This document shows, one piece after another, positions 23,793-28,342 of a DNA stretch of 64,000 bases (position 1 is its first letter; the number at the start of each line of letters is the position of its first letter). Source of the DNA: Promethearchaeota archaeon (GTDB lineage Archaea; Asgardarchaeota; Lokiarchaeia; Sigyniarchaeales; SOKP01); the NCBI GenBank assembly GCA_016839585.1, contig JAEOTZ010000056.1, forward strand, positions 1-64,000, in the 5' to 3' direction. Below the pieces are notes generated by a model. It did no database searches. It saw nothing but the letters and a program-made list of their open reading frames with translations, and had not been told where the DNA came from. The translations under genes and the position numbers were made by a program.

Positions 23793-24914
23793 ATGAAAAA
23801 GAAAAAGATAGATCCTTATTATTCACCTGCTCATTTGACATATAAAGCATATAGAAAAATTTGTGGTTATGCTATAAGATATGCAAATGATCATTTAGAT
23901 GAGAGTAAATGGCGTGAAGTATATGGTATCTTAATAGGATCAGTAGAAAATGAAGCTGAAGTTAAAATAAAAGATGCAATTCCAATGGTAGTTGGAGATA
24001 GAGCAGGTGTAAAATATGAAAATAAACAATACGTTGATATGGCACAAATTGATGCCTCAGTCTTTGAAAGATCTATCCAAGATAAAAGAAATGATTTTAT
24101 AATTGGTTGGTGGCATACACATCCAGGTTTTGGTTTTTTTTATTCTCCAATTGATTGTATGACTCAATTAGGTTACCAAATCCCTAATCCTTACGCTCTT
24201 GGATTAGTCTTTGATCATTGTGAAAGAAAATCAGATTCACATTTTTTAGGAGTAGCTGGGTTAAGATTAAAAGATCCAAATAGAGGCATTTCTTCTACTT
24301 ATAATCTTATCGAATTGAAATACGAGTTAAAGAAGGAAATAATGCTTAAAAATTCTGAAAAAGAAATAGATAAAATCAATAAAAATATGAAGAAAGTAAT
24401 AGAAGAAGTTAATTATATTGATCAGACACTCCGTAAGAAAGCACTGGCTCAATTACAAAGAAATTTTGGATTAATTTTAGTACCTAAGGAAGATATTGTA
24501 GTGACTGATAATGAACAAGAAGCTGGGGAGGATGAACGATATCTATATGAGTGGGATCCTGCGTTTTTCAAAAAATCATATCGAATTCCTAAATTTAGGG
24601 AAAAGATAGAGAAGGTAATATCAGATATTTACGACGAGTTGGATGAATTAATCGAAAAGAATGAGCATGAAAAATATAAGTTAAGAAAAGAAAAACTGCA
24701 AAAAAAAGTCCAAAATATGTTAAAAAAACCTAATGAATGGTATGAACGATTAATGGAGGATTTTTCTAAAAGAATAGAAGTGATATTTCCCTATTACGAT
24801 TACTTAGATACTAATGAGAGAAAAGTAATTGAATATTTTGAAGAAAGAAGTTCTGAGTATAATAAAATATTGGAAGAGCTAAATTCTCGAGTAGAACTAA
24901 ATTTTCTCGCCTAA
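23793..24914 (+). CDS. JAMM/MPN+ metalloprotease (Rpn11/CSN5-like) with helical C-terminal extension
   Basis: EVYGILIG and GWWHTHPGFGFFYSPID give an intact E..HxH-x7-S-x2-D motif; ALGLVFD. Confidence 0.85.
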   Translation: MKKKKIDPYYSPAHLTYKAYRKICGYAIRYANDHLDESKWREVYGILIGSVENEAEVKIKDAIPMVVGDRAGVKYENKQYVDMAQIDASVFERSIQDKRNDFIIGWWHTHPGFGFFYSPIDCMTQLGYQIPNPYALGLVFDHCERKSDSHFLGVAGLRLKDPNRGISSTYNLIELKYELKKEIMLKNSEKEIDKINKNMKKVIEEVNYIDQTLRKKALAQLQRNFGLILVPKEDIVVTDNEQEAGEDERYLYEWDPAFFKKSYRIPKFREKIEKVISDIYDELDELIEKNEHEKYKLRKEKLQKKVQNMLKKPNEWYERLMEDFSKRIEVIFPYYDYLDTNERKVIEYFEERSSEYNKILEELNSRVELNFLA

Positions 24915-25650: not shown

Positions 25651-26436
25651 TTAACGTTCTTTAGCTTTTATTTTACTTCTTTTATCAATAAACTTATTCC
25701 AATCAAATGCCAGAATGAAAAACATGATGGTAAGTGTAGCTATAAGCATTAAAGCTTCAGTTATCACGCTTGAAACATCATTAAGTTCGACTTCAGAAGC
25801 AGAAATTCCTAAATTAATCAAAATAGGAAGAAAAACATAAAATAAGGTTGTAAAATTTTTACCAATCCATCCAAAAAGAAGACACTTAAAAAAATTTATT
25901 TTTTCCTTTGACATTCCTAAAGCTATCCATAGCGGATCATCTGGAATTGGAAGAGCTGCTGCTATGAATATATATAGATACATACTTTTTGGATGTTCTA
26001 AAACTAATCTACCAAACCCTTGAACATTTTCTAAAGTTTTTGATTCTGATATTGAAGCCATTTTCTGAGCTCCTCTTCCCAATAAAAAACTTGTAAGTTC
26101 ACCTAAAGCAGCACCTAGCCCACCAGCGATCCCAAGACCAAAGATTAGTATTAAACCACTATGCCCAAATTCTGTGATGATTGAATTTGAAAAGAAAAAG
26201 AGTATAAAGGGAAATGGCACAGGAAATCCGATACTAGCACTTCCAAGAAGACAAATAATAAGGGAGATAAATAGTGCCCAAAAATAATTTGTACCTTCTG
26301 TTATATACGCTAATTTTTGTCTTGAATTATTAATAGCATCTTGAAAATCAGGGACAAATAAATATAATAATAAGTAAATTATAACGCAAACATAAAATAG
26401 TAGAAATACAATTGAAAGTCTTCTCGAAACAGCCAT
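25651..26436 (-). CDS. DedA/VTT (SNARE-associated-like) membrane protein
   Basis: PVPF, AGGLGAALGELTSFLLGRG, AALPIPDD and GK motifs. Confidence 0.8.
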   Translation of the reverse strand: MAVSRRLSIVFLLFYVCVIIYLLLYLFVPDFQDAINNSRQKLAYITEGTNYFWALFISLIICLLGSASIGFPVPFPFILFFFSNSIITEFGHSGLILIFGLGIAGGLGAALGELTSFLLGRGAQKMASISESKTLENVQGFGRLVLEHPKSMYLYIFIAAALPIPDDPLWIALGMSKEKINFFKCLLFGWIGKNFTTLFYVFLPILINLGISASEVELNDVSSVITEALMLIATLTIMFFILAFDWNKFIDKRSKIKAKER

Positions 26437-26462: not shown

Positions 26463-26849
26463 CTATACTCTAAGAATTTTAGTATTTAATCCATTCCTTG
26501 CTTTTAATAATAATTCGAGATTACTCATAACTTTTCCTACTATATTTACCTTATTTGACATTTCAAGAGCTTCTATAATTATTATTAATTCATCGGTTTT
26601 AGGATTATATACAATATCCCCCTCTTTCACTTCTGAAACTGATTTATTATTTAGTCCTTTATAAATTTTTATACCTGGTAGTGTCCAGTATTTTTTAGAA
26701 CCAAAGCTAAATCGTCCACGAAGAATAATTGGCATTTTATTAATTATAGCGTCTGCAGAAAAAGGCGATAGGTGTCTTTTAATTTGTCCTTTTAGCGTTC
26801 CAATGCCGTATAATTCAATTTTAATAGGTATTTGTCCTTGATCTGTCAT
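26463..26849 (-). CDS. cyclophilin-like fold protein (DUF369-like)
   Basis: RHLSP....I...MP, V.EGDIVY.P...L.I, VNIVGKV. Confidence 0.7.
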   Translation of the reverse strand: MTDQGQIPIKIELYGIGTLKGQIKRHLSPFSADAIINKMPIILRGRFSFGSKKYWTLPGIKIYKGLNNKSVSEVKEGDIVYNPKTDELIIIIEALEMSNKVNIVGKVMSNLELLLKARNGLNTKILRV

Positions 26850-26954
26850 ATTTTATAAATAAAGTAAATACAGATTTATATATTGTTTCAAAATGAAAAT
26901 TATTTTAAACTTCAAAAATTGTGCTTTAAAGGTATGAATATGCTTTAAATTTTA

Positions 26955-26971
26955 ATAAAAACATTTAAATA
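26955..26971 (+). promoter_or_regulatory. candidate BRE/TATA promoter of the ncRNA
   Basis: Purine-rich ATAAAAACA followed by TTTAAATA (26964-26971), about 25 nt before G26995/26996, matching archaeal promoter geometry. Confidence 0.55.
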
Positions 26972-26995
26972 GTCAAATTGTTATATATTTAATTG

Positions 26996-27461
26996 GATGG
27001 ATAATAGGTCTAATAATGCATTGGAGTAGTTACATAAAATCAAATCAAATAACAACAAATTTGTAACAATATTTCTAATGTAATCGTTATTTCCGACAAT
27101 ATTTTTTTATTTGATATCTCAAGGAGTAAATAAATACTCTGTATCTTTTCTAAAGTTATTTCATGATGTTCCTGTAGTATCTTATACAGTAGAACTAAAT
27201 ATAAACATCTAAGCGAGCAGTTTTAATGGATTTACGCTTATATTACTGATGAAAATAGAGATTCACACACTTTGTTACTCAAATTCTTGTCGAGCGTGTA
27301 TTTTTTTTTTGAAACACGAGACATTAAAACAGAGTCTAACATTAAAAAATGTGTGCTAAAGAATAGGAGCTTTGATTACAGATTTGTTTCATATGGGTAT
27401 AATATCGTTAATTCCTTACTTACTACAAATCTGAGTAATATCTGAGTTCCTATTGTCCATC
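26996..27461 (+). ncRNA. candidate large (~466 nt) structured non-coding RNA of unknown family
   Basis: No + strand ORF. Ends pair (GATGGATAATAGG 26996-27008 / CCTATTGTCCATC 27449-27461, one G-U). At least 8 internal helices with G-U-type deviations on the + strand, a canonical k-turn, upstream TATA and downstream T11. Confidence 0.7.
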
Positions 27462-28342
27462 TTTTTTTTTTTAATATTATAATTAGACAAATCCAATTTA
27501 GAATCAATATCATAAAATTCAAATCTATTATCAATTTCAACGGCAATTATTTTTTCTCCATTATTAATCATATAATTAATAATTTCCCATATTGTGTTTA
27601 CTGAGACTTTTCCTTTTAATTTTAAAAACTCACTCACTATTTTGAAATTAAATAAGAATACTGGTATTGCTTGCCTTATAAACTCTATATCTTGAAAAAC
27701 TCTCAAATCTTCTTGTTGAATTGCTCTTAAAAAGGTTTTCGAATTTTTTCTTTCAATTTGGATAATTGATATGAACTTGGGGGATTTTTGAATAATCTTG
27801 TTATGTTTTTCTTTTAAAATATTAACTTTTATTTTTCTGTAAAAAATTATTGGATATTCTTGAATGAGATTAGAATTATTCATTAGTGTAATAATAAGTT
27901 CATTTAGAAGACTAAACTCAAATATTGTGTCTCCAGGAATTACGAGAAATAGATTACTTTTCTTAAAAATCATATTATTCTTAGTTATAGATAAGAATGA
28001 ATATAAAGGACCTAACTTATAATCAATACCTGAATCAATAATTAATAATCTAGCTGTTAGGTATTTTTTTGTTTTTTTAAGTGAAGAAATAAATTCATCA
28101 ATTTGATATCCTAAATGTCCTTTAATTACTGCTATTTGGTTTATTCCTAGCTTTATAAAATTATTTATGGTATGATGTAAAATCGTACTATTATTTAAAG
28201 ATTTAATTTTCAATAATGGTTTTGGTATATTTTGAGTGATTTCCTTGAAGCGTGTTCCCTCTCCTGCGCATAAAATAATAATTGAGATTTTACTTCGAAT
28301 TTCATTCTTCAGTGGTAACAATTGTATTCCCTTCCTTATCAA
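27416..28342 (-). CDS. nucleotidyltransferase (NTP_transferase family)
   Basis: IILCAGEGTRF..IT..IPKPLL, PGD, YDIDS..DL. The start is uncertain (overlaps map); the C-terminal tail overlaps the ncRNA 3' end in antisense. Confidence 0.8.
   Translation of the reverse strand: MIRKGIQLLPLKNEIRSKISIIILCAGEGTRFKEITQNIPKPLLKIKSLNNSTILHHTINNFIKLGINQIAVIKGHLGYQIDEFISSLKKTKKYLTARLLIIDSGIDYKLGPLYSFLSITKNNMIFKKSNLFLVIPGDTIFEFSLLNELIITLMNNSNLIQEYPIIFYRKIKVNILKEKHNKIIQKSPKFISIIQIERKNSKTFLRAIQQEDLRVFQDIEFIRQAIPVFLFNFKIVSEFLKLKGKVSVNTIWEIINYMINNGEKIIAVEIDNRFEFYDIDSKLDLSNYNIKKKKMDNRNSDITQICSK
27462..27472 (+). terminator. oligo-T terminator immediately after the closing helix
   Basis: T11 run directly follows ...GTCCATC. 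Confidence 0.6.

Follow-up and report, generated by a model that had tools for sequence, protein, structure and literature searches.

Several bacterial noncoding RNAs (ncRNAs), namely OLE, ROOL, GOLLD, HEARO and raiA, are several hundred nucleotides (nt) long, stand alone as genes, are conserved within lineages and were found by genome comparison; they are presumed to work within ribonucleoproteins (RNPs), and their functions were initially unknown. RNase P RNA and signal recognition particle (SRP) RNA are single-copy RNAs of several hundred nt with paired termini. To our knowledge, large conserved ncRNAs without a known function are rare in archaea. We analyzed a 64,000-nt stretch of DNA from a Promethearchaeota archaeon (assembly GCA_016839585.1, contig JAEOTZ010000056.1, positions 1 to 64,000; the window in what follows) and conclude, from genome sequence alone, that it almost certainly contains a real, stand-alone ncRNA gene of a new family, read from the plus strand and predicted to give a primary transcript of ~475 nt (26995 to 27472). 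The RNA resembles the bacterial orphan ncRNAs in all of the respects listed above. It differs from them in matching no Rfam family by sequence or structure, in its archaeal promoter with a transcription factor B recognition element (BRE) and TATA box, in being as AU rich as its genome and in being marginally stable, and so far only its end helix and 3' hairpin are demonstrably structured, unlike in the bacterial classes. Such an RNA appears not to have been described for Asgard archaea, as judged from full-text literature searches and Rfam 15.

The gene lies in a 566-bp gap (26850 to 27415) between two open reading frames (ORFs) called on the minus strand. One encodes a cyclophilin-like protein of 128 amino acids (aa) and is divergent from the RNA gene (26463 to 26849; weak match to Pfam Cyclophil_like, E value of 3.8e-4), and the other encodes a sugar-1-phosphate nucleotidylyltransferase-like protein of 308 aa and is convergent with it (27416 to 28342; Pfam NTP_transferase, 1.9e-9). 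In 18 species of the genus, this gene pair encloses a spacer of 507 to 645 bp, and in most genomes of the genus blastn recovered both ends of the spacer and little of its middle. When these spacers were aligned, the last 110 nt were very conserved, and several conserved islands lay farther in. The locus has what is expected of a generic stand-alone archaeal ncRNA gene: a BRE/TATA promoter between about -35 and -24, the absence of a conserved ORF, a terminal oligo-T run and covarying structure.

The promoter consists of a BRE-like A-rich stretch and a TATA box (26952 to 26971 on the plus strand; TATA box TTTAAATA at 26964 to 26971) and is conserved as TTAATAAnAAnATTTAWATA in all genera examined. 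Its distance from the GGAYAAUAG of the RNA 5' end is fixed at ~20 to 25 nt in the orthologues, and the spacer alignment shows a conserved TTAATAAnAAnATTTAAATA followed ~22 nt later by (U)GGACAAUAGG. The same promoter type stands upstream of the RNase P RNA gene of this genome, and where blastn matched promoter-like sequence at other places in the genome, it was the ordinary promoter of a protein gene and never that of a tRNA gene. Based on the TATA spacing, transcription would start ~22 to 25 nt past the BRE/TATA element, at G26995 or G26996, and it would end in the oligo-U specified by a T11 run (27462 to 27472), the presumed terminator. Every orthologue ends in ..CCUAUUGUCC(A/U)n-oligoU, and in the great majority the T-rich run begins 0 to 7 nt after CUAUURUCC; in a few (e.g., the G018, G002 and G020 copies), it is short or interrupted. 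The RNAs predicted in this way are 368 to 641 nt long. The original prediction for this locus had placed the TATA box and the T11 run correctly, and the ten arm pairs that it listed are complementary with 0 mismatches and with G-U pairs only where it had put them. Its claim that the stretch was free of ORFs stands in part, since the nucleotidyltransferase ORF reaches 27416 from the other strand and the true spacer is 26850 to 27415.

The strongest comparative evidence comes from the helix that joins the two ends of the RNA, here called P1. The 5' arm (GGAUGGAUAAUAGG, 26995 to 27008) pairs with the 3' arm (CCUAUUGUCCAUCU, 27449 to 27462) through 13 bp and a terminal G.U pair. We aligned P1 from 72 orthologues by anchoring on GGAYAAU and AUURUCC, and offsets 0 to 9 were paired in 93 to 100% of them. 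Position 3 is C-G in 57 sequences, U.G in 12 and U-A in 3, with the U-A state present in three genera, and position 9 is U-A in 34, G-C in 23 and A-U in 10. In the clade of the window, an extra U-A pair has been inserted in both arms. The outer extensions of P1 vary by clade and stay complementary (GAAGAGGA/UCCUUUUC, GAAAAGGA/UCCUUUUC and GGAGGA/UCCUCU). Cells with double changes numbered 51, versus 27.0 ± 3.5 in column shuffles, none of 1,000 of which reached 51, a significance that is overstated to the extent that the orthologues are related and not independent. The P1 core contains 14 G.U cells and 3 A.C cells, an excess that points to an RNA of the plus strand, as had been proposed from the G-U deviations within the helices in the window. 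P1 is also conserved in sequence (GGAYAAUAG/CUAUURUCC) and not just in pairing.

The CCUAUU of the 3' strand has two candidate partners, the 5' end in P1 and an AAUAGG inside the RNA, in the basal helix of the 3' hairpin. Only one position is informative, and there the 3' nucleotide tracks the 5' end (97% paired) over the internal copy (~63%), which indicates that full P1 is the constrained state. Parts of the 5' end motif are found again, in direct orientation, as GACAAU just before the first internal U-tract (genera g1, g16 and g23) and as the AAUAGG just named; in the window, the motif and its recurrences are at 26995 to 27008, 27094 to 27099 and 27362 to 27367. This gives the 3' strand CCUAUUGUCC three possible partners and may point to a conformational switch.

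The other well-supported structure is the 3' domain (27360 to 27448), a long hairpin in which a basal AAUAGG-A-GCUUUGAUU pairs with AAUCKGAGC-N-CCUAUU around an inner helix (27379 to 27387 with 27425 to 27433). On a covariance-model alignment of 57 orthologues, 86.9% of the cells of this domain were paired, versus 33 to 54% in slid controls, and there were 44 double-change cells, versus 24.2 in shuffles (0 of 500 reached the observed count). Five of the seven pairs of the inner helix show compensatory changes. Column-wise pairing in MAFFT alignments was unreliable where the alignment shifts and under-scored this inner helix, which the covariance-model alignment backs. These results bear out the covariation that the original prediction had proposed looking for in orthologous spacers.

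We built a covariance model from the last 110 nt and searched 151 genomes of the order. It gave one plus-strand match per genome in 91 genomes, all in the family f1 (47 of 52 genomes in g1, 35 of 42 in g14, 5 of 8 in g16 and the single genome of g23). A pattern combining the promoter and the RNA 5' end matched exactly once in 85 of 134 f1 genomes and had 0 matches in the other six families of the class, represented by 27 genomes; a control pattern had 0 matches. Altogether, most of the 134 species-level f1 genomes yielded the RNA, and its gene is present in at least 10 genera of the family. When the pattern was used to scan 185,579 species genomes, there were at least 119 matches, and at least 71 of those listed carry the 3' partner and a U-run 368 to 585 nt downstream. 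The titled records among the listed matches with a partner are Promethearchaeota or uncultured-archaeon metagenome-assembled genomes, a few of them labelled as other Asgard phyla. The remaining listed matches are scattered AT-rich bacteria or incomplete loci, and three matches on viral contigs have no 3' partner and are attributed to chance. As far as can be detected in these sequences, the RNA family appears confined to this one large uncultured family of Lokiarchaeia. Within its own genome the gene has one copy, and the other blastn matches are 17 to 81 nt long with E values of 8e-5 or worse, several of them being the shared promoter-like segment.

Synteny extends through most of the family. 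The cyclophilin-like gene is syntenic in g1, g14, g16, g23, g15, g13 and g12, and the nucleotidyltransferase gene is syntenic in every f1 genus examined other than g12; there, the fetched locus contains the cyclophilin-like gene and the RNA and gave no nucleotidyltransferase match. The g17 loci have only the nucleotidyltransferase of the two flanking genes. Synteny also identified longer or diverged RNAs of up to 641 nt in g12, g13 and g15, and these keep the promoter, the 5' end, a GCAUUGG motif described below and the 3' end. No homologue was found by synteny in the family f2, where the cyclophilin-like gene adjoins a prs-like gene instead and the nucleotidyltransferase can hardly be detected. 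The nucleotidyltransferase subfamily had no match at an E value of ≤1e-10 in four of five genomes of other Lokiarchaeia families, and there was one weak partial match; it may share the family-restricted distribution of the RNA.

Between the 5' arm of P1 and the 3' domain, the RNA is more variable. The near-invariant GCAUUGG (27018 to 27024) lies 2 to 25 nt past P1, and nearly all orthologues in each genus have its CAUUGG. It has no generally conserved pairing partner (mean z of -0.45 in 65 sequences) and is therefore probably single stranded. A closing helix between CAUUGG and the segment before the first U-tract is strong in g12, g17 and some g1 species, and we rejected it as a family feature on the same mean z. 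The motif is followed by a hairpin (27029 to 27067) that is formed by GUUACA/UGUAAC in the window and by other sequence, as a long irregular hairpin, in other clades. Its shape is kept by AUACA..CGGU/ACCG..UGUAU in g1 and by CAAUU..AACAAC/GUUGUU..AAUUG in g14; RNAalifold gave no usable consensus on all-genus alignments of this 5' domain. Farther along are an internal U-tract of U7 (27102 to 27108), at which the presence of a T-run is conserved among orthologues, and a central motif, GUUCCUGUAGU(G/A) (27168 to 27179), which is conserved in g1 and g14. A second U-tract (U10, 27301 to 27310), an AU-rich element, sits between CUCUUG and GAUACnyGAGACA, and the latter corresponds to ACACGAGACA (27314 to 27323) in the window; most species have GAUACnyGAGACA, and GAGACA is near invariant in g1, g14 and g16.

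The central motif can pair with a downstream AGCACUUUGGAGC in most species, and the partner is largely lost in the clade of the window. The corresponding helix, GUUCC..AGUGCU/AGCACU..GGAGC, is weakly supported, with 11 double changes, versus 6.0 in shuffles, of which 33 of 1,000 did as well. Two other pairings, UCUUG/CGAGA around the second U-tract and GUUCCU with the AGGAG of the 3' domain (suggested by RNAalifold), were rejected after inspection revealed no consistent compensatory changes. Of the inner helices originally proposed from the window, those of the 3' domain and the 5' hairpin, like P1, have comparative support; the others look clade specific, holding in the three closest relatives and not demonstrably beyond them. 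CACACA/UGUGUG, for example, is paired in 11% of the other species of the genus in a MAFFT alignment that is unreliable in variable parts.

The 3' end of the RNA extends into the nucleotidyltransferase ORF. In the window, the last 57 nt overlap the tail of this ORF as called, and the last 19 codons (..KKKKMDNRNSDITQICSK and the stop) cover the T11 run, which is translated as KKKK, the 3' arm of P1 and part of the 3' hairpin. Read on the minus strand, the C-terminal tail at 27416 to 27472 is a poly-A stretch encoding KKKK and then MDNRNSDITQICSK up to the stop. In many g1 species the ORF ends at a UAA inside the palindromic GAUUAAUC of the 3' hairpin, and in g14 it stops near the end of the RNA, with little overlap. 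The overlapping tail looks like a by-product of RNA conservation. Elsewhere in the window are genes for a 373-aa JAB/MPN-domain protein (23793 to 24914, plus strand) and for a membrane protein with a subthreshold match to a VTT/DedA-type domain (25651 to 26436, minus strand), and genes for an M24 peptidase and a class II aminoacyl-tRNA synthetase lie farther along.

No Rfam family accounts for the locus. At gathering thresholds, Rfam 15 gave 0 matches in the 64-kb window, and among 18 orthologues from nine genera there was one unrelated weak match, at a single locus and on the other strand. RNase P RNA and SRP RNA, which had been set aside from the sequence by eye, are encoded elsewhere in the genome and have no match at this locus: the RNase P RNA (RF00373) is at C47:88164-88486 with 135.8 bits, and the SRP RNA (RF01857) is matched over its full length at C48:20143-20463 on the minus strand with 76.3 bits. 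This SRP RNA score is under the 96.5-bit gathering threshold, so standard annotation would miss it. The search agrees with the earlier suggestion of an undescribed family. We considered an H/ACA RNA and found no ACA box at the 3' end of any orthologue and no Rfam H/ACA match. Y RNAs and Sm-class small nuclear RNAs (snRNAs) share with the Asgard RNA a conserved terminal stem, A-U(5-12)-R tracts between stem-loops and a 3' oligo-U. However, the genome encodes no Ro/TROVE protein, on which grounds a Y RNA was rejected, and no Rfam Y, U1-U6 or similar model matched. A resemblance to U6 (GAUACAyGAGA and GUGCU/AGCAC) was dismissed as chance, given that the U6 model had no match.

Several observations weigh against the RNA being a full-length structured molecule. 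Beyond the shared ancestry of the orthologues noted above, most of the middle of the RNA has no demonstrable conserved structure. Its folding energy in the window is marginal and not strand specific (z of -2.21 on the plus strand and -2.07 on the minus strand), and two orthologues gave z values of -1.86 and -0.90 on the plus strand and +0.07 and -1.11, respectively, on the minus strand. The folding test put forward in the original prediction is therefore borderline, barely below shuffles with both strands alike; folding energy alone is weak evidence, and it is the comparison across genomes that carries the case. The RNA, called AT rich from the start, has 27% GC, about as AU rich as the genome (29%), whereas the RNase P and SRP RNAs of the same genome have 45 to 46% GC and no T-run longer than 4, versus the internal T7 and T10 of this RNA. 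Conserved internal runs of T7 to T12 mean that much transcription might stop ~105 nt from the start.

The internal U-tracts are a conserved feature. A run of at least five T's starts 60 to 125 nt from the 5' end in 67 of 73 orthologues, versus 18 expected from composition, and a run of at least seven T's does so in 47, versus 2.6 expected. A second T-rich or AU-rich element is found at ~300 to 350 nt, as a T-run in many g1 and g14 orthologues and as a UUUAAAUU-like sequence in others. When compared with the Sm site R-A-U4-6-G-R, the first tract is preceded by A in 51 of 67 cases and followed by G in only 17. The orthologue in G018 (L015:1628-2015) is without the whole 5' domain, such that GCAUUGG, the hairpin and the first U-tract are gone and P1 joins the central domain directly, and it has no run of five or more T's anywhere in the RNA, its end included. 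Its promoter, P1, central motifs and 3' domain are retained, which argues for a single transcript running from one arm of P1 to the other.

Archaea use oligo-T as their intrinsic signal for termination, and with the internal T-runs this makes an isoform of ~105 nt plausible. The main product could then be a small RNA (sRNA) that ends at the first U-tract, with the full-length RNA a minor read-through product or with the downstream domains forming separate molecules that pair in trans with the 5' end of the sRNA. We consider this unlikely as the principal form. In its favor, besides the excess of long runs at 60 to 125 nt, the internal runs (5 to 12) almost match the terminal runs (5 to 14) in length, and T10 is rare even within ORFs of the genome, with 2.4 Mb containing 8 runs of at least that length; against it, hundreds of ORFs tolerate runs of T7 to T8. 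P1 covaries between the very first and last nucleotides, the geometry expected of one molecule, and the central and 3' domains have no conserved promoter, since a TATA-like sequence at the second U-tract is present in some clades only. The g13 orthologues, like that of G018, have no internal run of five or more T's and keep the rest. A role in cis is much less probable still: the transcript would act on the convergent nucleotidyltransferase gene, by pairing or interfering with the 3' end of its mRNA, or on the divergent cyclophilin-like gene, by insulating or driving it. Such a role would fit the strict family-wide synteny with both genes, 3' ends that overlap by ~35 to 57 nt in the window and many g1 species, and the possibly shared distribution of RNA and nucleotidyltransferase, but conserved intramolecular helices, an invariant 5' motif and a compensating 3' hairpin are not needed for antisense action, conservation reaches well past the overlap, and in g14 there is hardly any overlap for it to use.

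That the RNA belongs to a known class and has diverged strongly, the most plausible candidates being a long box C/D-type (U3-like) RNA or another kink-turn (K-turn) RNA bound by L7Ae, is highly improbable, even though archaeal C/D sRNAs and U3 have paired 5' and 3' ends, as this RNA does, and U3 likewise has a long 5' part followed by a compact 3' hairpin domain. In the window, CUGA (27442 to 27445) stands just 5' of the terminal stem, UGAUUA (27373 to 27378) follows AAUAGGAGC, and the best match in the E-value mode of Rfam was SNORD127, below threshold, at 27364 to 27452 (23.4 bits versus a threshold of 45; E value of 0.41). However, the CUGA of a box D is found only in the clade of the window and a few others, with CGGA in most species, and no RUGAUGA of a box C lies near the 5' end, where P1 is followed by UCUAAUAAUGCAUUGG in the window and by its equivalent in orthologues. 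The candidate K-turn strands form a continuous regular helix, GCUUUGAUU/AAUCGGAGC, and variation at the supposed bulge (U.G to C-G in three species and U.G to U-A in two) keeps Watson-Crick or wobble pairing. No small nucleolar RNA (snoRNA) or other family recurs across the 18 orthologues, and the RNA is 4 to 8 times longer than C/D sRNAs. As to rRNA itself, the assembly of the window, at 99% completeness, lacks 16S and has just ~1.3 kb of 23S, located at the end of contig C76, and two single-contig relatives (G022 and G006) contain rRNA fragments only. There is scarcely a case for an element acting as DNA, with no functional RNA, such as an origin with an AT-rich unwinding region between origin recognition box-type repeats, or the two ends of a mobile element. 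An AT-rich ~470 bp does lie between conserved inverted repeats with a third partial copy (AATAGG) inside, but the element is single copy at fixed synteny and thus not mobile, and there are no dispersed copies to suggest the miniature inverted-repeat transposable element that had been named as a possible refutation. Positions outside any fixed box are complementary through three different Watson-Crick pairs, the mismatches are G.U on the plus strand, the promoter at a fixed distance and the oligo-T right after the repeat fit a transcription unit, and the flanking genes converge on, and do not diverge from, the region at ~25.6 kb. That the locus instead encodes one or more small proteins can be practically dismissed. 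The plus strand of the window has ORFs of 33, 36 and 57 codons, but the longest ORFs in the 73 orthologues differ in strand and place and are no longer than expected by chance (median of 41 aa versus 36 aa in shuffled sequence), indels do not come in threes, and it is the helices and ends that are most conserved.

Weighing these alternatives, we consider it likely that the functional form is the full-length, end-paired molecule, and the gene's identity and anatomy taken together with that form are a good deal more probable than not, if slightly less so than the form alone. In the model that we favor, the first ~10 to 15 nt of the transcript would pair with the last ~10 to 15 nt before the U-tail to form P1 as a clamp. 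The 5' arm would lead into the probably single-stranded GCAUUGG and then into the long hairpin, a variable middle with few conserved islands would be punctuated by the conserved U-tracts, and the conserved hairpin domain of ~90 nt would adjoin the 3' arm. P1 and the invariant single-stranded motifs may be recognition sites for a protein or target, and the U-tracts may bind Sm-like proteins, set the ratio of the short (~105-nt) to the full-length isoform, or both. Because the sequence of P1 is conserved, some invariant motifs are apparently single stranded, stability is marginal and A-U(n)-R tracts are present, we tentatively suggest a trans-acting RNP scaffold or guide, a role to which we give somewhat less than even weight. 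A more specific version, in which the A-U(n)-R tracts that separate the stem-loops are genuine binding sites for Sm/Lsm rings, GCAUUGG pairs with another RNA and the whole is a lineage-specific large RNP RNA, is quite unlikely; if true, the prokaryotes most closely related to eukaryotes would have a guide or scaffold resembling snRNAs and snoRNAs, and its short and long isoforms might be programmed at the internal U-tract.

Even if the RNA were only a local regulatory transcript, it would usefully annotate an empty 0.5-kb gap in more than 100 genomes. The conserved oligo-U tracts within an ncRNA pose the question of termination versus read-through in archaea. The single copy, wide presence, strict end helix and conserved motifs imply a specific partner and a housekeeping-type role for this RNA in the family, and they make it a defined target in a lineage that is studied for the origin of eukaryotic RNP machinery.

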